A stretch of DNA of 64,000 bases. It comes from an uncultured Erysipelotrichaceae bacterium (GTDB lineage Bacteria; Bacillota_I; Bacilli_A; RF39; UBA660). The notes below the pieces were generated by a model that was given only the letters and a program-made list of their open reading frames with translations, searched no databases and was not told the DNA's origin. The translations under genes were made by a program, and so were the position numbers. This document shows, piece after piece, positions 3,556 through 57,566 of the stretch (positions are counted from its first letter, which is position 1; each line of letters opens with the position of its first letter). The stretch lies in the NCBI GenBank assembly GCA_902780585.1, contig CACZGA010000002.1:126-64125 (forward strand), read 5' to 3'.

Positions 3556-3793
3556 ATCATCTCCCCAAAAAAAATTATTATAAACATAAGGACGAACAAT
3601 CGCGGTACCACCTTATTTTATAATAATTAATATTATACACTCAAATAGTTAACGCCTATATACGTTTATACCTACATATCGATATAAAAGTTCAGAAGCC
3701 ATACAGAATAAATTGTTTATACTTCCTTTCACCTAACGAAGTTCTCTAATAATAAACGACATCATTCCGCTCTTCATCACAACATTTAAATAC
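3556..3793 (-). promoter_or_regulatory. T-box leader (tRNA-sensing riboswitch) of metG
   Basis: Minus strand reads AAGGTGGTACCGCG (plus 3601-3614), matching the T-box core GGUGGUACCGCG. A hairpin and a U8 tract follow, ahead of the metG SD. Upstream there are AGAGA and GGTGAAAG stem-I-like elements and a candidate AUG specifier (..CUGUAUGGC..). A TTGCAT-17-TATTAT promoter sits at 3828-3800. Confidence 0.75.
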
Positions 3794-14331: not shown

Positions 14332-14781
14332 TTATTTCATTCTTTGTATTTTAAAAAAAGAACTTAATAACTTTTTTGATTTATCCACAGCTAAATTAGT
14401 ATATAATTTAACCTCAGGATTAATATTATCACCTTTAAATATTGATTCAATAATAGATAAATTATTATCATCAGAATTAGATAAAGCAGAATAAACAGTT
14501 TTAATTCTAGATTGTTTAATAGCACTAGCACACATTGAACACGGATCTAAAGTAACATACAATTCACAACCATCCAATCTCCAATTATTAAGTTTTCTTT
14601 CAGCTTTCTTAATAGCAATAATTTCAGCATGATCTAAAACAGAGTTAGAAGACTCTTTTTTATTATAACCAGTAGAAATAATTACATTATCTTTCACAAT
14701 AACTGCCCCAATTGGGACTTCATTAAGAGAAAAAGCTTTTTCAGCACATTTAAATGCATATTCAAAATATTTATTATCCAT
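14332..14781 (-). CDS. tadA: tRNA-specific adenosine deaminase
   Basis: Cytidine-deaminase fold motifs HAEIIAI and PCSMCASAI. Start set at ATG 14781 (AGGTGA SD) rather than ORF-track GTG 14790. Confidence 0.9.
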   Translation of the reverse strand: MDNKYFEYAFKCAEKAFSLNEVPIGAVIVKDNVIISTGYNKKESSNSVLDHAEIIAIKKAERKLNNWRLDGCELYVTLDPCSMCASAIKQSRIKTVYSALSNSDDNNLSIIESIFKGDNINPEVKLYTNLAVDKSKKLLSSFFKIQRMK

Positions 14782-14796
14782 AATATTCACCTAAAT

Positions 14797-14878
14797 AAAA
14801 AGTGCACATGAAAGGAGGACTTTAAGGCTGCTATTTTCCAATCCTGACCTGTTTCAGCCACTTTCATTGCACGAGATT
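14797..14878 (-). ncRNA. ffs: signal recognition particle RNA, small (4.5S-like, no Alu domain)
   Basis: Minus strand reads GUGCAAUGAAAGUGGCUGAAACAGGUCAGGAUUGGAAAAUAGCAGCCUUAAAGUCCUCCUUUCAUGUGCAC followed by a U5 tract. CAGGUCAGG..GGAA..AGCAGCC matches the conserved helix-8 motif of E. coli 4.5S RNA (CAGGUCAGGUCCGGAAGGAAGCAGCC). The two ends pair. Confidence 0.7.
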
Positions 14879-14972
14879 ATTTTATTATAAAAAAAAAGAA
14901 AAGTAAACAATTATTACTATAAAACAGTTAGATTATATATTAATATACTGAAAAAAATTAAATTCTTATCTA

Positions 14973-14988
14973 TGTTTCACGTGAAACA
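14973..14988. promoter_or_regulatory. parS-like site 1
   Basis: TGTTTCACGTGAAACA, a perfect 16-bp palindrome that fits the ParB/Spo0J parS consensus TGTTNCACGTGAAACA. Confidence 0.75.
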
Positions 14989-15012
14989 TTACACTTCTAC
15001 TTCTATTCAAAT

Positions 15013-15028
15013 TATTTCCCGGGAAATA
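15013..15028. promoter_or_regulatory. NBS-like (Noc-binding-site) palindrome 1
   Basis: TATTTCCCGGGAAATA. The core ATTTCCCGGGAAAT equals the published B. subtilis Noc-binding-site consensus. Confidence 0.7.
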
Positions 15029-15046
15029 TTTTAATAATTCTACCTA

Positions 15047-15062
15047 TGTTCCACGTGAAACA
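15047..15062. promoter_or_regulatory. parS-like site 2
   Basis: TGTTCCACGTGAAACA, identical to the canonical B. subtilis parS. Confidence 0.75.
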
Positions 15063-15086
15063 TTGTGTTTCAACTTCTATTCAGAT

Positions 15087-15102
15087 TATTTCCCGGGAAA
15101 TA
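15087..15102. promoter_or_regulatory. NBS-like palindrome 2
   Basis: TATTTCCCGGGAAATA, exact. Confidence 0.7.
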
Positions 15103-15121
15103 TTTTTAGTACTTCTACCTA

Positions 15122-15137
15122 TGTTTCACGTGTAACA
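15122..15137. promoter_or_regulatory. parS-like site 3 (degenerate)
   Basis: TGTTTCACGTGTAACA, one mismatch to consensus (GAAACA to GTAACA). Confidence 0.5.
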
Positions 15138-15161
15138 TTGTGTTTCTACTTCTATTCAGAT

Positions 15162-15177
15162 TATTTCCCGGGAAATA
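15162..15177. promoter_or_regulatory. NBS-like palindrome 3
   Basis: TATTTCCCGGGAAATA, exact. Confidence 0.7.
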
Positions 15178-15196
15178 TTTTTAGTACTTTTACCTA

Positions 15197-15212
15197 TGTT
15201 CCACGTGAAACA
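15197..15212. promoter_or_regulatory. parS-like site 4
   Basis: TGTTCCACGTGAAACA. Confidence 0.75.
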
Positions 15213-15236
15213 TTGTGCTTCTACTTCTATTTAGAT

Positions 15237-15252
15237 TATTTTCCGGGAAATA
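15237..15252. promoter_or_regulatory. NBS-like palindrome 4 (degenerate)
   Basis: TATTTTCCGGGAAATA, one C-to-T change in the left half-site. Confidence 0.5.
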
Positions 15253-15271
15253 TATTTAGTACTTTTACCTA

Positions 15272-15287
15272 TGTTTCACGTGAAACA
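15272..15287. promoter_or_regulatory. parS-like site 5
   Basis: TGTTTCACGTGAAACA. Confidence 0.75.
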
Positions 15288-15311
15288 TTGTACTTCTACT
15301 TCTATTCAGAT

Positions 15312-15327
15312 TATTTCCCGGGAAATA
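15312..15327. promoter_or_regulatory. NBS-like palindrome 5
   Basis: TATTTCCCGGGAAATA, exact. Confidence 0.7.
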
Positions 15328-15345
15328 TTTTAGTACTTCTACCTA

Positions 15346-15361
15346 TGTTCCACGTGAAACA
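15346..15361. promoter_or_regulatory. parS-like site 6
   Basis: TGTTCCACGTGAAACA. Confidence 0.75.
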
Positions 15362-15385
15362 TTATACTTCTACTTTTATTCAGAT

Positions 15386-15401
15386 TATTTTCCGGGAAAT
15401 A
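15386..15401. promoter_or_regulatory. NBS-like palindrome 6 (degenerate)
   Basis: TATTTTCCGGGAAATA, one C-to-T change. Confidence 0.5.
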
Positions 15402-15420
15402 TTTTTTGTACTTCTACCTA

Positions 15421-15436
15421 TGTTTCACGTGAAACA
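15421..15436. promoter_or_regulatory. parS-like site 7
   Basis: TGTTTCACGTGAAACA. Confidence 0.75.
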
Positions 15437-15460
15437 TTATACTTCTACTTCTATTTAGAT

Positions 15461-15476
15461 TATTTCCCGGGAAATA
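15461..15476. promoter_or_regulatory. NBS-like palindrome 7
   Basis: TATTTCCCGGGAAATA, exact. Confidence 0.7.
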
Positions 15477-15495
15477 TTTTTAGTACTTCTACCTA

Positions 15496-15511
15496 TGTTC
15501 CACGTGAAACA
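15496..15511. promoter_or_regulatory. parS-like site 8
   Basis: TGTTCCACGTGAAACA. Confidence 0.75.
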
Positions 15512-15535
15512 TTATATTTCTACTTCTATTTAGAT

Positions 15536-15551
15536 TATTTCCCGGGAAATA
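15536..15551. promoter_or_regulatory. NBS-like palindrome 8
   Basis: TATTTCCCGGGAAATA, exact. Confidence 0.7.
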
Positions 15552-15570
15552 TTTTTAGTACTTCTACCTA

Positions 15571-15586
15571 TGTTCCACGTGAAACA
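15571..15586. promoter_or_regulatory. parS-like site 9
   Basis: TGTTCCACGTGAAACA. Confidence 0.75.
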
Positions 15587-15610
15587 TTGTATTTCAACTT
15601 CTATTTAGAT

Positions 15611-15626
15611 TATTTCCCGGGAAATA
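15611..15626. promoter_or_regulatory. NBS-like palindrome 9
   Basis: TATTTCCCGGGAAATA, exact. The array ends just after it. Confidence 0.7.
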
Positions 15627-15703
15627 TTTACAACAACTTAATTATATTCAAATAAAGTATTAATAAACATTAAAAACTTTTTTCCACATAGCAATTAACC
15701 AAT

Positions 15704-15728
15704 AAAAAACAGATACTAAATGTATCTG
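15704..15728 (-). terminator. rho-independent terminator after gyrA
   Basis: Minus strand reads CAGATAC-AUUUA-GUAUCUG followed by U6, 9 nt after the gyrA stop. Confidence 0.7.
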
Positions 15729-15736
15729 CTATAAAA

Positions 15737-18202
15737 TTATTCAACTGTATTTTCAACAGGCTCTTCATCAATAAATTCAGAATTTTCATCATCATTATAA
15801 ACGAGTGCAACAGTAGAGACTTTTTGATTATCTTTTAAATTAATTAATCTTACACCCTGTGTAGCACGTTTTAAAGTAGAAACTTGATCTAATGGAAGTT
15901 TAATAATAATACCACTATTAGTAATTATTAATAAATTTAAAGGAGCATTAGGTTCATGACATTTTAATGAAGTCATCATACCATTCTTCTCAGTAACGTT
16001 TAAAGCTTTAACACCTTTACTACCACGATGAGTAAGTCTATATTCATCAATTAAAGTTTGTTTACCATAACCATTTTCAGTAACAATTAATACGTGATGA
16101 CCACTTTCCACAACCTCTGCACCAACAACAACTGCATCACCAAGGTCCATTCCTTTAACTCCAGAACTACTTCGACCCATAGATCTAACTTCATCTTCAT
16201 TAAAACGAACTAATCTACCATTACTTGCACCAATAACAATTTCATTTTTTCCACAAGTGCTTTTTACGCTTATTAATTCATCATTTTCTTTAAGAACAAT
16301 AGCAATTTTACCACTCTTTCTTATATTATCAAATTCTTCAATAGGAGTTCTCTTAACAATACCTTTCTTAGTAGCAAACATTAAATATTTACTATTTTCA
16401 TCATTTTGACGAATACTAACTATCGAACTAATGTTCTCGTCTTTTTCAAGTGGTAATAAATTAATAATTGGTAAACCTTTAGACTGTCTAGAAAATTCTG
16501 GAACTTCATAACCCTTCATTCTATATACTCTACCCTTATTAGAGAAGAATAAAATATAATCATGGGTACTCATTGAAATTAAATGTTCTACAAAATCTTC
16601 CTCATTAGTAGACATTCCCTTTATACCAACACCACCACGGTTCTGAGTCTTATAAGTATCAGTTCTCAATCTCTTAATATAACCATTTCTAGTTAAATTA
16701 ATAATAATGTCTTCTTCTGGAATTAAAGATTCATCTTCAATATATTCAATAGCTGTCATATCAATATTAGTACGTCTCTCATCACCATATTTTTGCTTAA
16801 TTTCAAGTAATTCATTCTTAATTACTTCTAAAATCTTTTCATCACTAGCTAAAATAGCCTTTAATTCAGCAATTGTCTTTAATAAATCACTTAATTCACT
16901 CTCTATTTTTTCTCTTTCTAAACCAGTTAAACGGCGAAGTCTCATTTCTAGAATAGCATTAGCTTGAATTTCAGTTAATTTAAAGCCATTCATTAAACCG
17001 TTTTTTGCTTCCTCATCAGATTGAGAACCACGAATTACTTTAATAACCGCATCAATATGATCTAAAGCTATTTTTAATCCCTCTAAAATGTGAACTCTTT
17101 TTTCCGCAACGTCTAAATCAAATCTAGTACGACGAATAATAACTTCTTTTTGATAATCAATATACTTAACAATAATATCTTTTAATCCTAATGTTTTAGG
17201 AACACCTTGATCTAACATTAAGAATATGATTCCATAAGTAGTTTGAAATTGTGTATGCTTATATAGTTTATTTAAAACAACTTGAGCATTAGCGTCCTTT
17301 TTTAAAGTAATAGTTATTTTAATTCCATCTTTTAAATCAGAATGATAATCAGCTATACCCTCAATTACTTTATTATGAACTAATTCAGCTACTTTATTCT
17401 TTAATTCCAAAGTATTAACACCATATGGAACTTCATCAATAATTATATATTGTTTTCCATTTTCTTCTTCAATAGTAGCCCTACTACGTACTGTAATTGA
17501 ACCTCTACCAGTTTCATAAGCCTTACGAATACCACTATTTCCTAGAATAATAGCACCTGTAGGAAAATCAGGCCCTTTAATATATTGCATTAATTCATCA
17601 AGTTCAATATCAGGCTTATCAATATAAGCTACACAACCATCAATAACTTCACCTAAATTATGTGGAGGTATATTAGTAGCCATACCAACAGCAATTCCTG
17701 TTGTACCATTAACTAAAATATTAGGAAATCTTGAAGGTAAAACCTCTGGCTCTCGTTCACTCTCATCAAAGTTAGGTATAAAATTAACCGTATCCTTATT
17801 GATATTTCTTAATAATTCAAGAGACATCTTAGAAAGCCTAGACTCAGTATAACGCATTGCTGCTGCACCATAACCTTCAATATTACCAAAATTACCATGA
17901 CCATCTACTAACATATAACGGTAAGAAAAGTCCTGAGCCATTCTTACCATAGCCTCATAAATAGAAGAATCACCATGAGGGTGATATTTACCCATAACAT
18001 CTCCAACAATTCTAGCACTCTTTTTATGAGGTTTATCTGGAGTATAACCAGATTCATACATAGAGTATAAAATACGTCTGTGTACAGGCTTTAAACCATC
18101 TCTAAGGTCAGGAAGTGCTCTAGCAACAATAACACTCATAGAATACTCTAAAAATGAGTCCTGAACTTCTTTTACTATATTATTTTTTTCTAATCTATCC
18201 AT
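15737..18202 (-). CDS. gyrA: DNA gyrase subunit A
   Basis: 821 aa. AAMRYTE active-site Tyr region and a C-terminal beta-pinwheel. gyrB-gyrA synteny. Confidence 0.97.
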
Positions 18203-21357: not shown

Positions 21358-21388
21358 CACAAAAAAATAGTTAAAATTAACTATTTTT
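21358..21388 (-). terminator. hairpin plus U-tract overlapping the comK-like stop codon
   Basis: Minus strand reads AAAAAUAGUUAA-UUUU-AACUAU followed by U6-7. AT-rich 7-bp stem, so only moderate confidence. Confidence 0.5.
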
Positions 21389-21823
21389 ATGATTTCTCAG
21401 AATCAAATCTAACCTAGATGCTCTAGATAATTGATTTTCCATAGTACGATAAGAACAATTAACTATAATTTCTCTATTATTATCAAAAATAACCTTAGTA
21501 TTATCATATTCTACTCTTTCAATTTTCTTTACTCTTTTTAAAGAAATCCATACACAATCATCAGCTAAAGGCGATGTTGTAGGAAAAACAATTAAATTAT
21601 TCTCATCCTCAACTACAATAGGTACTTTATATTCAGCCCCTAAAATATCTCTAGCTCCATTTTTCCTTCCTTCATAAGTACTACCAAAGTACTTACAACT
21701 ATCCTCCATAATTTTAAAAGGTCTTTCTGAAATAATATAATTTGTTTCATCTTCATATACTATACTAGAATCTCCTTCATTAGGTACAATTGCTAAAGTA
21801 CCCCTACTAATTTCATAATTCAT
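21377..21823 (-). CDS. comK: ComK-family competence transcription factor homologue (short, 148 aa)
   Basis: Aligns by eye along B. subtilis ComK. YEISRGTLAIVPNE matches YEVNGATIAVLPEE. SCKYFGSTYEGRKNG matches SCRFFGSSYAGRKAG. KVPIVVE..LIVFPTTSP..CVWIS matches KPPIMVD..FLFPTLSS..CGWIS. SYRTMENQ matches SYNSFENQ. Strong GGGGGA SD. Confidence 0.8.
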   Translation of the reverse strand: MNYEISRGTLAIVPNEGDSSIVYEDETNYIISERPFKIMEDSCKYFGSTYEGRKNGARDILGAEYKVPIVVEDENNLIVFPTTSPLADDCVWISLKRVKKIERVEYDNTKVIFDNNREIIVNCSYRTMENQLSRASRLDLILRNHKNS

Positions 21824-23214: not shown

Positions 23215-24597
23215 TTAAACAACCCCTATATCTTTTTTTAATTTTTCTACTATATTTGCTAAATCTTTATTAGTTTTAATTTCATTTTCTATCTTTTCAA
23301 CTGAATGCATTACCGTAGAATGATCTTTTCCCCCAAATTCTGTTCCTATCTTTGGAAAAGATTCTGAAGTCATTGCCCTACACAAGTACATAGCAATTTG
23401 TCTAGGAAAGGAAATATTAGAACTTCTCTTTTTGCTCCGAATATCCTCCATTGATATTTGAAAGTATTCAGAAACAATCTTTTGTATTCTTTGAATATCG
23501 TTCTTTTCCCCTATTCCTTTACTTATAAAGTCTTTTAGGGCTTCAATAGCTAAATCTAAAGTTATAGCTTCTCCTCCCATTATAGCAGAATAAGCAAGTA
23601 ATCTAGTAACCGATCCTTCTAATTGCCTTACATCTGGTCCTATATTAGATGCTATATATTCAATAACATCATCAGGTATATCCTGTTCAAAATTACCTGC
23701 AATAATCTTTTTCTTTAATATTTCAGTTTTTAAAGCATATTCTGGTGGATAAATATTAACTGTTAGTCCCCAAGTAAATCTAGTTCTAAGCCTATCTTCC
23801 AGTAGTTTTAAATCAGTTGGGGATCGGTCTGATGATATAATTATTTGCTTACTATCATTATATAAATTGTTAAAGGTGTGGAAAAATTCTTCTTGGCTTT
23901 TTCCAGCTCCTCCTAAAAACTGTATATCATCAATTAATAAGACATCTATGTTTCTATACTTATTTTTAAAGAAGTCTATATAGTTAAAATTAGTACCACT
24001 ATCATCTTTTCTATTAGCTTTAACAAAATCTTGTCGAAACTGTTCACTTGTAACATAGAGTACTCTTTTATTAGTATTTTCAACAATATAATTACCAATA
24101 GCATGCATTAAATGCGTCTTCCCTAACCCACTATTTCCATATAGGAATAAAGGATTATACATGTGTCCTGGATTTTCAGCAACACTTAATGCCGCCGCAT
24201 GAGCAAATTTATTACTATTACCAACAATAAAATTATCAAATAAATACTTAGGATTCAAATTATTATTAACATTTTCATTTTCTTTAAATCCTATATTTTC
24301 ATTAGTAGAAGTTTTTACTTCTTGTTTTTTCTTTTCTTCCTCTTCAACAATTTCTTCATTTAGTAATAGTATTAATTCATAAGAAGTATTAGTAATTTCT
24401 TGTAATTTTGAAATAATTAATTCTGAATAATTATCAATTAAATGTTTTTTATGTATTTGCATCGGTACTATAATATAAGCTTTCTCATTCTCAAACTTAT
24501 ATAACTTAGTATCTTGAAACCATGTAATATAAGAGATAGATGATAAATCATTTTTTATTTGCTCTAATACTTTTGACCATACAATGTCATAATTCAT
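23215..24597 (-). CDS. dnaA: chromosomal replication initiator protein DnaA
   Basis: AAA+ GNSGLGKTHLMHAIG, LLIDDIQFL, and C-terminal DNA-binding domain GGKDHSTVMHS. Start set at ATG 24597 (GGGGAGATGG SD) instead of ORF-track TTG 24615. Confidence 0.96.
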   Translation of the reverse strand: MNYDIVWSKVLEQIKNDLSSISYITWFQDTKLYKFENEKAYIIVPMQIHKKHLIDNYSELIISKLQEITNTSYELILLLNEEIVEEEEKKKQEVKTSTNENIGFKENENVNNNLNPKYLFDNFIVGNSNKFAHAAALSVAENPGHMYNPLFLYGNSGLGKTHLMHAIGNYIVENTNKRVLYVTSEQFRQDFVKANRKDDSGTNFNYIDFFKNKYRNIDVLLIDDIQFLGGAGKSQEEFFHTFNNLYNDSKQIIISSDRSPTDLKLLEDRLRTRFTWGLTVNIYPPEYALKTEILKKKIIAGNFEQDIPDDVIEYIASNIGPDVRQLEGSVTRLLAYSAIMGGEAITLDLAIEALKDFISKGIGEKNDIQRIQKIVSEYFQISMEDIRSKKRSSNISFPRQIAMYLCRAMTSESFPKIGTEFGGKDHSTVMHSVEKIENEIKTNKDLANIVEKLKKDIGVV

Positions 24598-24615
24598 GCA
24601 ACCATCTCCCCACAA

Positions 24616-24930
24616 GATTCATTTAATAAAAATTATTCTACACGAGTTCACTCAAAAAAGGAACTCTTTTCTTCATAATTTTTTTTTATAAAGAATAAGC
24701 CCCATTTTCCACAAAATATTCTACCTAAAAAGAGGAAAAAAATATAGTAAAAATAACAAATAATATTATAAACATCTAATCCACAATATTATCCACATCA
24801 TAATTTCTTTTAAATATATAATAATAATGAGTTTTCCACATTTTCCACAGATTTTTGTTAACATACATACTAATTAATAATCAACAGACCTGTGGAAATT
24901 GTTAATAAAAATAGAAATCTTAAGTTTTCA
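24616..24930. other. oriC part 1 (dnaA-upstream DnaA-box cluster)
   Basis: Boxes: TTTTCCACA 24705-24713, TAATCCACA 24777-24785, TTATCCACA (perfect) 24789-24797, abutting TTTTCCACA at 24832-24840 and 24841-24849, and inverted TGTGGAAAT at 24891-24899. The strand switch of all flanking genes occurs here. Confidence 0.8.
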
Positions 24931-31604: not shown

Positions 31605-32915
31605 ATGTACCCAGACGAGAAAGACGAAGTTGTACAATTATACTTGGATGATATAATTCCTAATAGATTTCAACCACGTGAAATATTTGATGAAAAAGCA
31701 TTAAAAGAACTCGCTGTATCAATTAAAGAACATGGTGTTATACAACCTATTATAGTAAGAAAAGTAAATGAAAAATATGAAATAATTGCTGGAGAAAGAA
31801 GATATAAAGCCTCAGCTCTAGCAGGACTTACAAAAATTCCAGCAATAATTAGAGACTTAGATGATAAAGAAAGTTCAAAAGTAGCATTACTTGAGAACTT
31901 ACAAAGAAAGAACTTAAACCCAATTGAAGAAGCTAGAACATTCCAAAAGATACTTGAACTTGATGAAATGACACAAGAAGATTTAGCTAAAACAATGGGA
32001 AAAAGTCAATCTGCAATTGCTAATAAAATACGTTTGTTATCACTACCTGATGAAATTCAAAGTGCTTTACTAAAAGAAGAAATATCAGAAAGACACGCTA
32101 GAACACTATTAAATCTACCAAATGCCGAAAAGCAAAAAGAAATGCTACAAAGAGTAATTAATGAAAAAATGAGTGTCAGAGCTTTAGAAAATGAAATTAA
32201 AATGATGCAACCAGTAGAAACAAGAAATGAAATAGCCTCAAGTGATTTCGTAAATAGTAATCCACTAATGCCAACTGCAGAATTACCAAAAGACACCTCA
32301 GATTATGGAAAGGTTACAATAGCCCCACCAAAAGGAGAAGATCAATCTATGCCTCATAAATTTATTAATTATGGAGAATTAGAAGAAGATGCTGATGACG
32401 GAGGAACAACATTCGATATGCCACCATCAGTAACATCAATAGATATTGATAAAATGAAAGAAACAACCACAGATATCAATAAAGTCCCTGCTAAAGGAGC
32501 AGATTTAGATAGTTTATTGAATTTAGGTAATCCAACATCTTCAATTCCAACTAATCAATTTATTACTCCAGCAGAAAAGATAGTTAAAACAGATTTAGGA
32601 GAAGATAGAATAGATAATTCAGATTATTTTAAAATGCCTGATTACAATACAGGTAATAATGAATCTCAAATGATTAATTCGGTATCTAACAACATGTTCT
32701 TATCAAGCCCACCACCAAAAGAAGAATTACCAAAAACAGAACTTGCGCCACTTAAATCATTTGAGGCAGAACCTACAACTTATACATTAGAGCAAGCAAC
32801 AAATAAAATGAGAGAGCTTATTAAAGATTTAAAAGAACATGGTGTTGAAATAAATGCTGATGAGATGGATTTTGATACATCATACCAAATAATAATTAAA
32901 ATTGATAAAAAGTAG
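31605..32915 (+). CDS. noc: Noc-like ParB-family protein (nucleoid-occlusion-protein homologue with long internal low-complexity insertion)
   Basis: 436 aa. ParB N-domain (IIPNRFQPRE, HGVIQPIIVR, AGERRYKAS). HTH region GKSQSAIANKIRLL..ISERHARTLL matches B. subtilis Noc (GKGQSTIANKLRLL..ITERHARAL) rather than Spo0J. C-terminal ..EMDFDTSYQIIIKIDKK resembles the Noc C-terminus (..EEFEEYIQLTIRIPK). rsmG-noc-parA-parB synteny. Confidence 0.75.
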   Translation: MYPDEKDEVVQLYLDDIIPNRFQPREIFDEKALKELAVSIKEHGVIQPIIVRKVNEKYEIIAGERRYKASALAGLTKIPAIIRDLDDKESSKVALLENLQRKNLNPIEEARTFQKILELDEMTQEDLAKTMGKSQSAIANKIRLLSLPDEIQSALLKEEISERHARTLLNLPNAEKQKEMLQRVINEKMSVRALENEIKMMQPVETRNEIASSDFVNSNPLMPTAELPKDTSDYGKVTIAPPKGEDQSMPHKFINYGELEEDADDGGTTFDMPPSVTSIDIDKMKETTTDINKVPAKGADLDSLLNLGNPTSSIPTNQFITPAEKIVKTDLGEDRIDNSDYFKMPDYNTGNNESQMINSVSNNMFLSSPPPKEELPKTELAPLKSFEAEPTTYTLEQATNKMRELIKDLKEHGVEINADEMDFDTSYQIIIKIDKK

Positions 32916-33001: not shown

Positions 33002-33790
33002 ATGGGAAAGGCAATATCATTAGTAAATCAAAAAGGCGGAGTAGGAAAAACGACTAGTAGCATTAATCTTTCAGCATCCTTAGCTGTATTAGGTAAAAAA
33101 GTACTACTAATTGACCTAGATCCTCAAGGAAATACCACAACAGGAGTAGGTATTAATAAGGGGGAAATAGAAAGAAGTATATATGATGTGCTAATAGGTG
33201 AATGTAAAATAACAGAAGCTATAATCAAGACAAGATATAAAAACTTATATGTTATTCCCGCTACCATTAATTTAGCAGGATTAGAGTATGAACTTATAGA
33301 AAAGAGTAATAATGATACTAGTTTTAAAAAAGGCGAACAATTAAAAATTAGTTTAATGGATATAAAAGATAGTTTTGACTATATCATTTTAGATTGTCCA
33401 CCTTCTTTATCATTAATAACAACAAATGCCTTAGCGGCATCTAATTCAGTAATAATTCCAGTACAATGCGAATTCTTTGCTCTAGAAGGAATTACTCAAT
33501 TATTAAAAACAATAATGCTTTCTCAAAAAACATTAAATCCTACTCTAGATATTGAAGGCGTTTTATTAACAATGCTAGATTCTAGAACTAATTTAGGCTT
33601 TGAAGTAGTAGAAGATATAAGAAAGTTCTTTAAAGAAAAAGTATATAATACAATAATTCCAAGATTAGTAAGATTAACAGAAGCTCCATCTCATGGAGAA
33701 CCAATTATAGCTTATGATCCAAAAAGTAGAGGATCAGAAGCCTATTTAAACCTAGCAAAGGAAGTGATTGAAAGAAATGGAAAACAATAA
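33002..33790 (+). CDS. parA: chromosome-partitioning ATPase ParA/Soj
   Basis: Deviant Walker A NQKGGVGKTTSS, DLDPQGN, ILDCPPSL; 262 aa. Confidence 0.95.
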   Translation: MGKAISLVNQKGGVGKTTSSINLSASLAVLGKKVLLIDLDPQGNTTTGVGINKGEIERSIYDVLIGECKITEAIIKTRYKNLYVIPATINLAGLEYELIEKSNNDTSFKKGEQLKISLMDIKDSFDYIILDCPPSLSLITTNALAASNSVIIPVQCEFFALEGITQLLKTIMLSQKTLNPTLDIEGVLLTMLDSRTNLGFEVVEDIRKFFKEKVYNTIIPRLVRLTEAPSHGEPIIAYDPKSRGSEAYLNLAKEVIERNGKQ

Positions 33791-34682
33791 TACCACAGAA
33801 AGTGGAATACCTAAAAGAAGAGCTTTAGGTAGAGGCCTAGAAGAATTATTTAACAGTGAAGTCTTAGATTACAACACTGTAGAAGAAAAAATAGTAAGTG
33901 ATTCAACAAAAGATGAAGTTACTATGGTTAAATTAAATGAATTAAGAAGCAATCCATACCAACCAAGAAAAGTTTTTGATGAACAAGCTCTAGAAGAATT
34001 AGCAAGTTCAATCAAAGAACATGGTGTAATTCAACCCATAATTGTAAAAAAATCTATCAAAGGCTATGAAATAATAGCTGGTGAAAGAAGAGCTAAAGCC
34101 TCACAATTAGCAGGTTTAGAAGAAATCCCAGCCATTATCAGAGATTTTAATGATACTCAAATGATGGAAATAGCCTTACTTGAAAATCTACAAAGAGAAA
34201 ATTTAAGTGCTATTGAAGAAGCTAATGCTTATAAAAAATTGCAAGAAACTTTATCTCTAACCCAAGAAGATTTAGCTAAAAGACTAGGTAAAAGTAGAAG
34301 CCATATCACAAATATGTTAGGTTTGTTAACACTACCTCAAGATATTCAAGAAGAAGTAAACAACAAAAACATCTCAATGGGACATGCTAGAGTACTTAGC
34401 AAATTAGATGATATAGCTCAACAAGAAAAACTAGCTAAAAAAGTAATTGAAGATGGTATAAGCGTTAGAAAATTAGAAGAATTAAGCCAAGAAAAAGAAA
34501 TTATAAAAACTAATCCTCAAAGAAATAAAACTCCAAATGAATATAGTTATTTACAAGAAGAATTAAGTGAAAAATTAGGTACAAAAGTAGTAATAAAGAA
34601 AAATAAGATAGAAATAAATTTTGTAAATACAAATGATTTAAATAGATTATTAGACTATATGAATATTGGAGTTGGAAAATAA
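33777..34682 (+). CDS. parB: chromosome-partitioning protein ParB/Spo0J
   Basis: GLEELF box, NPYQPRKVFD, HGVIQPIIVK, AGERRAKAS. HTH GKSRSHITNMLGLL..ISMGHARVL is ParB-type (KSR, GHxR). Start ATG 33777; the ORF track begins at TTG 33768. Confidence 0.92.
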   Translation: MENNNTTESGIPKRRALGRGLEELFNSEVLDYNTVEEKIVSDSTKDEVTMVKLNELRSNPYQPRKVFDEQALEELASSIKEHGVIQPIIVKKSIKGYEIIAGERRAKASQLAGLEEIPAIIRDFNDTQMMEIALLENLQRENLSAIEEANAYKKLQETLSLTQEDLAKRLGKSRSHITNMLGLLTLPQDIQEEVNNKNISMGHARVLSKLDDIAQQEKLAKKVIEDGISVRKLEELSQEKEIIKTNPQRNKTPNEYSYLQEELSEKLGTKVVIKKNKIEINFVNTNDLNRLLDYMNIGVGK

Positions 34683-42417: not shown

Positions 42418-42628
42418 AAAAATGTCTAAAAGATATTGAGCTTTTGTTAAAACCGACTAAGTAACAATAAGGGAATTCGGAACTAGTCAACTGGTGTTGA
42501 ATGCCTATCATAGAATAGGAATCCTAAAAGTTGAGTATGAATACCCACCTAAAATAAGCGGGTTTTGCCGCTTCAATCTTTAGACATTTTTCTTTTGCAC
42601 TAAAAACGTATATTATACGTTTTTTATT
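42418..42628 (+). ncRNA. candidate structured small RNA (6S-RNA-like architecture; identity unconfirmed)
   Basis: Own extended -10 (TGCTATAAT, 42409-42417). The 5' arm AAUGUCUAAAAGAUAUUGAGC (42421-) pairs with the 3' arm GCUUCAAUCUUUAGACAUU (-42598), closing an about 150-nt interior that holds internal hairpins (CCUAU-CAUAGA-AUAGG, AGCGG-GUUUUG-CCGCU). A U-tract follows, then a second hairpin AAAAACGUA-UAUUA-UACGUUUUU (42602-42624). No ORF. Confidence 0.45.
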
Positions 42629-57510: not shown

Positions 57511-57566
57511 AAGTACGCATTGAATTACTATGACAAATATTTTGTCATGGCGGAAGGAGAGATAAT

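Follow-up and report, generated by a model that had tools for sequence, protein, structure and literature searches.

Why should a bacterial chromosome carry the predicted binding sites of two different ParB-family proteins, in strict turn, within one tandem repeat beside its replication origin? This question is raised by a stretch of 64,000 nucleotides (the window in what follows) from contig CACZGA010000002.1 of assembly GCA_902780585.1, which belongs to an uncultured Erysipelotrichaceae bacterium. The 64-kb window has a G+C content of 28.5% and spans the origin of a Bacillota chromosome. Between gyrA and the gene for the small signal recognition particle (SRP) RNA lie nine repeat units, each with one parS palindrome, the site of ParB, and one Noc-binding site (NBS), the site of the ParB paralogue Noc. 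We assign a probability of roughly 0.6 to the reading, based on sequence comparisons, that two paralogous cytidine triphosphate (CTP) clamps of the ParB family load on this array as on a composite, centromere-like platform close to the origin.

An array of alternating parS and NBS palindromes

Tandem Repeats Finder detected the array at 14970-15629, with a period of 75 bp, 8.8 copies, and 92% matches. The units are arranged head to tail, two of them are 74 bp long, and every unit contains one parS and one NBS palindrome. Eight of the nine parS sites are exact matches to the 16-bp palindrome TGTTNCACGTGAAACA; the exception is copy 3, with one plus-strand mismatch. The 14-bp NBS core ATTTCCCGGGAAAT, which is the published Noc-binding site, sits within a longer element found in each unit, TATTTCCCGGGAAATA; it is exact in seven of the nine units and reads ATTTTCCGGGAAAT (one mismatch) in the other two. 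From centre to centre, an NBS follows parS at a distance of 40 bp, and the next parS follows the NBS at 34 to 35 bp. Units differ mainly in the spacer directly after parS and at base 5 of parS, which is degenerate. Tandem Repeats Finder and motif scans thus reproduced all numbers of the initial annotation, that is, nine units of ~75 bp (two of 74 bp), the site counts, the mismatches, and the spacing, and both palindromes indeed match the published parS and NBS consensus sequences exactly. The motif scan placed the sites, which have no assigned strand, as follows.

14973..14988, parS 1, TGTTTCACGTGAAACA
15014..15027, NBS core 1, ATTTCCCGGGAAAT
15047..15062, parS 2, TGTTCCACGTGAAACA
15088..15101, NBS core 2, exact
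15122..15137, parS 3, TGTTTCACGTGTAACA, one mismatch on the plus strand
15163..15176, NBS core 3, exact
15197..15212, parS 4
15238..15251, NBS core 4, ATTTTCCGGGAAAT, one mismatch
15272..15287, parS 5
15313..15326, NBS core 5, exact
15346..15361, parS 6
15387..15400, NBS core 6, ATTTTCCGGGAAAT, one mismatch
15421..15436, parS 7
15462..15475, NBS core 7, exact
15496..15511, parS 8
15537..15550, NBS core 8, exact
15571..15586, parS 9
15612..15625, NBS core 9, exact

With up to two mismatches allowed, no parS or NBS was found elsewhere in the window; the remaining 63 kb has no NBS besides the nine of the array. At the same threshold, dinucleotide shuffles of the sequence contained on average 0.08 parS and 0.21 NBS matches, compared to the 9 and 9 observed.

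Two further candidates at this position were discarded. An open reading frame of 131 amino acids (15063-15458, plus strand) was rejected as a gene; it lies wholly inside the repeats and is a by-product of them. The idea of a datA-like DnaA sink was dropped because the array units contain no DnaA boxes.

The array in a second assembly and in related genomes

A second assembly from another sample (L122), with ~98% nucleotide identity and an identical GyrA protein, has the same array with six units. The L122 array carries point variants of its own, among them degenerate NBSs on its tadA side. Since the same repeat is present in an independent assembly, the array is real and not an invention of the assembly process. 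The exact count of nine comes from one short-read assembly, and the difference between nine and six units reflects either strain variation or under-assembly in one of the two assemblies. Searches of plasmid, phage, and viral-contig collections gave no match to the array or to the paired pattern, and an origin from a mobile element was therefore rejected.

The initial annotation had treated the arrangement as a singular oddity. Species-representative genomes were scanned for a parS half and an NBS half within 15 to 40 bp of each other, and at least 119 loci were found, all of them chosen for having one such pair. Nearly all are from metagenome-assembled genomes (MAGs) of uncultured gut or rumen "Bacilli," "Erysipelotrichaceae," "Mollicutes/Tenericutes," or CAG "Clostridium." Adjacent parS and NBS palindromes are thus present in at least 119 species-level genomes, and the array of the window is not singular. 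The counts that follow refer to the loci listed. A gyrA, tadA, or dnaX homologue stands beside the sites in 116 of 119 loci. Mostly, the cluster occupies the spacer between gyrA and the SRP RNA gene (ffs)/tadA; in one subclade it is in the tadA-dnaX spacer, and in a few genomes it is in both. This choice of spacer by subclade argues for selection for a chromosomal position rather than for one promoter. Intergenic DNA from gyrA to dnaX has 3.4 parS and 2.0 NBS per kb, compared to 0.004 and 0.062 per kb outside.

True tandem arrays are present in 33 of the loci. In ~15 of the 33, the unit contains a single parS and a single NBS, the period is 72 to 120 bp, and the number of units reaches 13. The array of the closest relative (GyrA identity, 93%) consists of 6 units of 84 bp. 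Across species, the palindromes are invariant and the spacers are unrelated, with periods of 61 to 120 bp overall, which argues for selection on both sites and for independent amplification and homogenisation in each lineage. Denser arrays, with a period of 61 bp, at least 8 to 10 units, and 25 and 36 bp between site centres, were found on two metagenome contigs (L124, 2927-3379, and L125, 15-1228). These two contigs share the spacer TACTTCTACCTATGTT with the window; the rest of each contig was unmatched to it.

Two side observations concern the NBS of this clade. In 16 species (e.g., L005, L012, L022, L024, L045, L048, L103, L117, and L119), an NBS lies inside dnaX, and there it is found at two relative positions, ~0.32 and 0.64 to 0.73 of the matched span; the dnaX of the window has none. 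Furthermore, conservation of the NBS extends past 16 bp, to AATTATTTCCCGGGAAATAATT; the flanking positions are conserved at 70 to 80%, a level too high for the A+T bias to account for.

Order and spacing of the sites

The order of the two site types was analysed in 64 loci with non-tandem clusters, using 5,000 permutations of site order. We counted 227 alternations of site type, whereas 183.7 ± 7.7 were expected, and none of the 5,000 permutations reached the observed value. Neighbouring NBSs were depleted (17 observed, 38.5 expected). Centre distances between neighbouring parS and NBS had peaks at ~24, 36, and 47 to 48 bp and a trough at 40 to 42 bp; the best period was 11 bp, and with 102 clusters (80% clustering) 0 of 2,000 null draws scored as high. 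These values are suggestive of a helical phasing of the parS-NBS distances.

The predicted readers of the two sites

In accordance with the initial annotation, the window encodes a ParB-type protein, a Noc-type paralogue, and ParA; the genes were located, and the specificity residues of the two proteins fit the two palindromes as predicted readers.

31605..32915, plus strand, Noc-like ParB paralogue of 436 amino acids with ParB_N and helix-turn-helix domains (family scan, structure search, alignment)
33002..33790, plus strand, parA, soj-type ATPase (protein family scan)
33768..34682, plus strand, parB, spo0J-type, 304 amino acids, start at 33768 (gene callers, 33777) (protein family scan)

The best match of ParB among solved structures was Spo0J of B. 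subtilis (6SDK, 214 bits, compared to 167 bits for Noc). The protein has the specificity residues R173 and G201 (Caulobacter-equivalent positions; motifs GKSRSH...SMGH), which are absolutely conserved in ParB (PMC7383237), and retains the CTP-pocket motifs GERR and ENLQR, the N-terminal motif LGRGL, and the ParB_C domain. parA and parB overlap by ~14 to 23 nucleotides, depending on the parB start (TTG at 33768 or the callers' 33777), which suggests translational coupling.

For the longer paralogue, the best solved structure was Noc of Geobacillus (7NFU, 210 bits, compared to 179 bits for Spo0J). At positions 173, 179, 184, and 201 it has Q, K, S, and R; in its own numbering the Q, K, and R are Q135, K141, and R163, and these three are invariant in an alignment of 42 homologues (63 to 76% identity). 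In Noc, adenine 1 of the NBS is recognised by Q173 and cytosine 6 by R201, given a lysine at position 179 or 184 (Jalal 2020, PMC7383237). The GERR and ENLQR motifs of the CTP pocket are retained as well. The protein matched the NCBIfam Noc model TIGR04285 with 290.1 bits over model positions 1 to 200, which is below the cut-off of 315, and its last 40 amino acids matched model positions 217 to 255 separately (E = 3.5e-4).

Noc carries an N-terminal amphipathic helix for membrane targeting, which is required for nucleoid occlusion, and Noc without the helix is impaired (PMC8429893). No such helix was found in the Noc-like protein or in any of the 42 aligned homologues. Residue 4 of the protein aligns to residue 23 of Noc, i.e., it starts 19 to 20 residues later; four codons upstream of the start there is a stop in the same frame, and MYPDxKDE is the N terminus of all homologues. 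In the AlphaFold2 model, a linker of ~185 residues (~205 to 390) is disordered (pLDDT score, <50), and the model shows no conspicuous membrane segment, be it hydrophobic or amphipathic. Pfam and NCBIfam scans revealed no known domain in the linker. It does contain short motifs that are conserved in the 42 homologues (FVNxNPLxPTAELP, YGKVTIAPPEGE, KFINYGE, ADLDSLLNLGNP, FITPAEKIVKTD, and SDYFKxPD), and these are likely to bind a partner. At least 120 clusters of such long Noc-like proteins, of 417 to 533 amino acids, are present in public data. Three of the homologue records (P0002, P0003, and P0012, all from one bulk metagenome deposit, GCA_016648615.1) keep the gene order rsmG-noc-parA-parB. 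The window has the same, ancestral order, and the predicted readers are encoded 16 to 19 kb from the array. It had been proposed in the initial annotation that the array could set segregation against nucleoid occlusion; as framed, such a contest is unlikely, since the Noc-like protein has no membrane helix and scores below the Noc cut-off.

Genomic context of the array

The placement of the array between the gyrA terminator and the SRP RNA/tadA promoter, ~9 kb from oriC, was borne out: the hairpin, the promoter hexamers, and the DnaA boxes could all be located. The distance from the array to the DnaA-box cluster is 9.1 kb.

14332..14790, minus strand, tadA (protein family scan)
14789..14883, minus strand, small SRP RNA (Rfam RF00169, 56.8 bits)
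14907-14879, minus strand, promoter-like hexamers of the SRP RNA, one border of the array (sequence)
15708..15730, minus strand, intrinsic-terminator-like hairpin of gyrA, the other border (sequence)
15737..18202, minus strand, gyrA (NCBIfam NF004043, 1157 bits)
23215..24615, minus strand, dnaA (open reading frame list)
24705..24849, no strand assigned, cluster of five DnaA boxes (oriC) upstream of dnaA (box scan)

On the minus strand, the order is dnaA, dnaN, a ComK-family gene, recF, gyrB, gyrA, the array, SRP RNA, tadA, dnaX, ybaB, and recR; on the plus strand, it is rnpA to mnmG, rsmG, the 436-amino-acid ParB-family gene, parA, and parB. No promoter-like site was found inside the array. 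For the ComK-family gene between recF and dnaN (21377-21823, minus strand; Pfam PF06338, E = 2e-44), 19 related loci have a homologue in the corresponding position. Rfam RNAs above the gathering score were a T-box leader (3585-3789, minus strand), a 6S RNA (42420-42590, plus strand), and an L31 ribosomal-protein leader (57528-57559, plus strand).

Comparison with known systems

Is this a known system in an unusual setting? With the chromosomal ParABS systems of B. subtilis (Spo0J) and Caulobacter (ParB-parS), it shares the 16-bp parS consensus, the origin-proximal position, the adjacent parA, and a ParB with R173/G201, GERR/ENLQR, the ParA-contact motif LGRGL, and the dimerisation domain ParB_C. 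In the model species, single parS sites are spread across tens to hundreds of kb and are often intragenic. Here, in contrast, nine parS sites stand head to tail in 660 bp of noncoding DNA, each paired with the site of a second protein, and neither parB nor the rest of the 64 kb contains one.

With the Noc-NBS systems of B. subtilis and S. aureus, it has in common the NBS core, the position of the gene between rsmG and parA, the Q/K/R residues, the CTP motifs, and a C-terminal stretch of 40 amino acids that fits the end of the Noc model. Unlike Noc, the paralogue has no membrane helix (PMC8429893), has an inserted linker of ~185 amino acids, and falls below the family cut-off. Moreover, the NBSs are concentrated beside parS at the origin instead of being only scattered over the chromosome.

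Iterated centromeres are known from plasmids: sopC of F has 12 repeats of 43 bp, and P1 and P7 parS and R1 parC are further examples. They resemble the array in having head-to-tail repeats, each with a binding palindrome, and a variable copy number. They differ in that the array lies in a chromosomal oriC context, 16 kb from the par genes, has two palindromes per unit, and has no similar plasmid, phage, or viral record. Many parS sites near oriC are also found in Myxococcus, Corynebacterium, and Streptomyces, but those clusters span 15 to 200 kb, are not tandem, and contain no sites of a second paralogue.

In RacA-ram of sporulating B. subtilis and RicO-ricS of S. aureus (bioRxiv 10.64898/2026.03.06.710092), a second sequence-specific protein has its sites concentrated near oriC and acts together with ParB/SMC in origin positioning; RacA and RicO are plausible functional analogues of the long Noc paralogue. 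They belong to unrelated families, and RicO uses a C-terminal amphipathic helix; no anchoring element was identified in the long Noc paralogue. The ram and ricS sites are not known to alternate with parS within one repeat unit.

The parS/ParB and NBS/Noc parts are thus of known kinds. What is new is the co-amplification of parS and NBS in each unit, the conserved mixed cluster at a fixed locus, and the helix-less, long-linker form of Noc. A full-text literature search found no description of a natural interleaved parS/NBS array, and the papers that contain both sequences use them as probes. The search agrees with the initial annotation, to whose author no described chromosome with parS and NBS co-amplified in one repeat unit was known. 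That annotation had also considered the case of an array both common in the clade and already described: it is common (at least 119 loci) but, by the literature search, not described.

What the array may do

Under the reading that we prefer, the nine parS sites would nucleate the canonical ParB, which would act with ParA, and by analogy SMC, in segregation of the origin region. The nine interleaved NBSs would nucleate the clade-specific long Noc paralogue, which would have kept the DNA specificity, the CTP-binding N-domain, and the C-terminal domain of Noc, lost the helix, and gained the linker of ~185 residues. The paralogue might thereby bring a partner or a property to the ParB-bound origin. 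It could, for instance, act as an anchor, provide a link to division or replication, or shape or insulate the ParB complex. As the parS-NBS module is duplicated in tandem and homogenised, the two sites would stay at a 1:1 ratio and at short, possibly helically phased distances. Direct support comes from the identity of the sites, the reality of the array, the synteny, the conservation in more than 100 species, the nonrandom alternation, and the features of the proteins. From these we infer that both proteins bind, load as clamps, spread, perhaps interfere with each other, and serve a function downstream. Because the membrane helix is absent, the disordered linker is rich in motifs, and the cluster keeps its chromosomal position across spacers, the Noc lineage of this clade has probably taken on a new role tied to the origin instead of classical nucleoid occlusion.

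Four points weigh against this reading. Position 184 of the Noc-like homologues is S, T, or A and not K, although a single lysine at 179 or 184 is sufficient for NBS specificity (PMC7383237). The related loci were chosen for having one parS-NBS pair, so that their number is not a prevalence within the clade. Outside the cluster, relatives have an NBS about every 16 kb, in some cases inside dnaX, so that the paralogue may also act genome-wide, as Noc does. Finally, the 11-bp phasing is no longer significant under harsher phylogenetic clustering (39 single-linkage clusters; 294 of 2,000 null draws).

A more far-reaching version can be offered only tentatively, and we would sooner bet against it than for it. 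In a two-protein centromere, a large clade of uncultured, small-genome gut Bacilli would co-load ParB and a repurposed, helix-less, linker-bearing Noc from one repeat unit at 1:1 and in a preferred helical register, giving a mixed nucleoprotein body of CTP clamps at the origin; Noc would have switched from genome-wide occlusion to a role at the origin, where its linker motifs would recruit partners that anchor it or link it to division or replication.

Could the NBSs instead serve the organisation of ParB and not a separate function of Noc? The Noc paralogue, or its clamps, would then be a roadblock or insulator that limits ParB sliding, confines ParB to a compact block, and shields the flanking essential genes (gyrBA, SRP RNA, tadA, and dnaX) from ParB spreading. 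Tightly bound proteins do block ParB sliding, the sites alternate strictly with neighbouring NBSs depleted, gaps between sites are as small as 9 to 25 bp, and the array is hemmed in by the terminator and the promoter of essential genes. However, a roadblock is needed at the edges only and not in each unit, CTP-bound clamps quit the nucleation site, so that occupancy is transient, and the conserved motifs of the 185-residue linker are left unexplained. We consider this explanation unlikely.

Less likely still is classical nucleoid occlusion, in which a functional Noc would tether DNA to the membrane through another element, e.g., a linker motif, and the array would be a strong NBS hot spot that shares its spacer with parS by chance. 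The NBS-type specificity residues, the Noc-type C-terminal domain, the gene at the noc position, and the dispersed NBSs of relatives (~1 per 16 kb) would be in line with this. But the N-terminal amphipathic helix is missing in all 42 aligned homologues, and helix-less Noc is impaired (PMC8429893); the score is under the NCBIfam Noc cut-off, and no membrane segment stands out in the model. Nor is a nonrandom pairing with parS expected of nucleoid occlusion.

It is very improbable that the array consists of transcriptional operators through which the two ParB-family proteins repress or silence, in the manner of KorB, the adjacent SRP RNA/tadA/dnaX or gyrBA units. The SRP RNA promoter does adjoin the array, and ParB-family proteins such as KorB can silence nearby genes. 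ParB of P. aeruginosa is a further example (PMC5521831). Yet the cluster is in different spacers in different subclades, there is no promoter-like site within the array, the copy number varies from 1 to 13 among the loci listed, and nine operators would be excessive for one promoter. It is just as improbable that an unrelated DNA-binding protein reads the NBS-like palindrome, or that the array is a neutral minisatellite or an artefact of assembly in which the palindromes merely happen to lie. The length of tandem repeats can come out wrong in short-read assemblies, and the unit counts of the two assemblies differ (9 and 6). But across more than 100 species the spacers change and the palindromes do not, the two independent assemblies have distinct point variants, the specificity residues match exactly, and no copies exist elsewhere in the window or in plasmid, phage, and viral collections.

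Implications

ParB and Noc are the textbook case of duplicated DNA-binding CTP switches whose specificities have diverged to separate sites. Here, their loading sites have been rejoined, alternating every 25 to 50 bp, and kept so in more than 100 species. In practice, the parS/NBS cluster beside gyrA-ffs-tadA-dnaX can serve as a marker of the origin region in the MAGs of this little-known clade of gut bacteria, and although the organisms are uncultured, the components are short enough for immediate reconstitution in vitro. If both proteins bind as predicted, the array would be a system for asking whether paralogous clamps block, pass, or co-operate with each other, and it would bear on how the size of the partition complex is set and on which roles the Noc lineage has without membrane binding. 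If the two-protein centromere should prove true, it would be the first instance in nature in which two paralogous CTP switches co-operate or engage in cross-talk directly on one DNA element.

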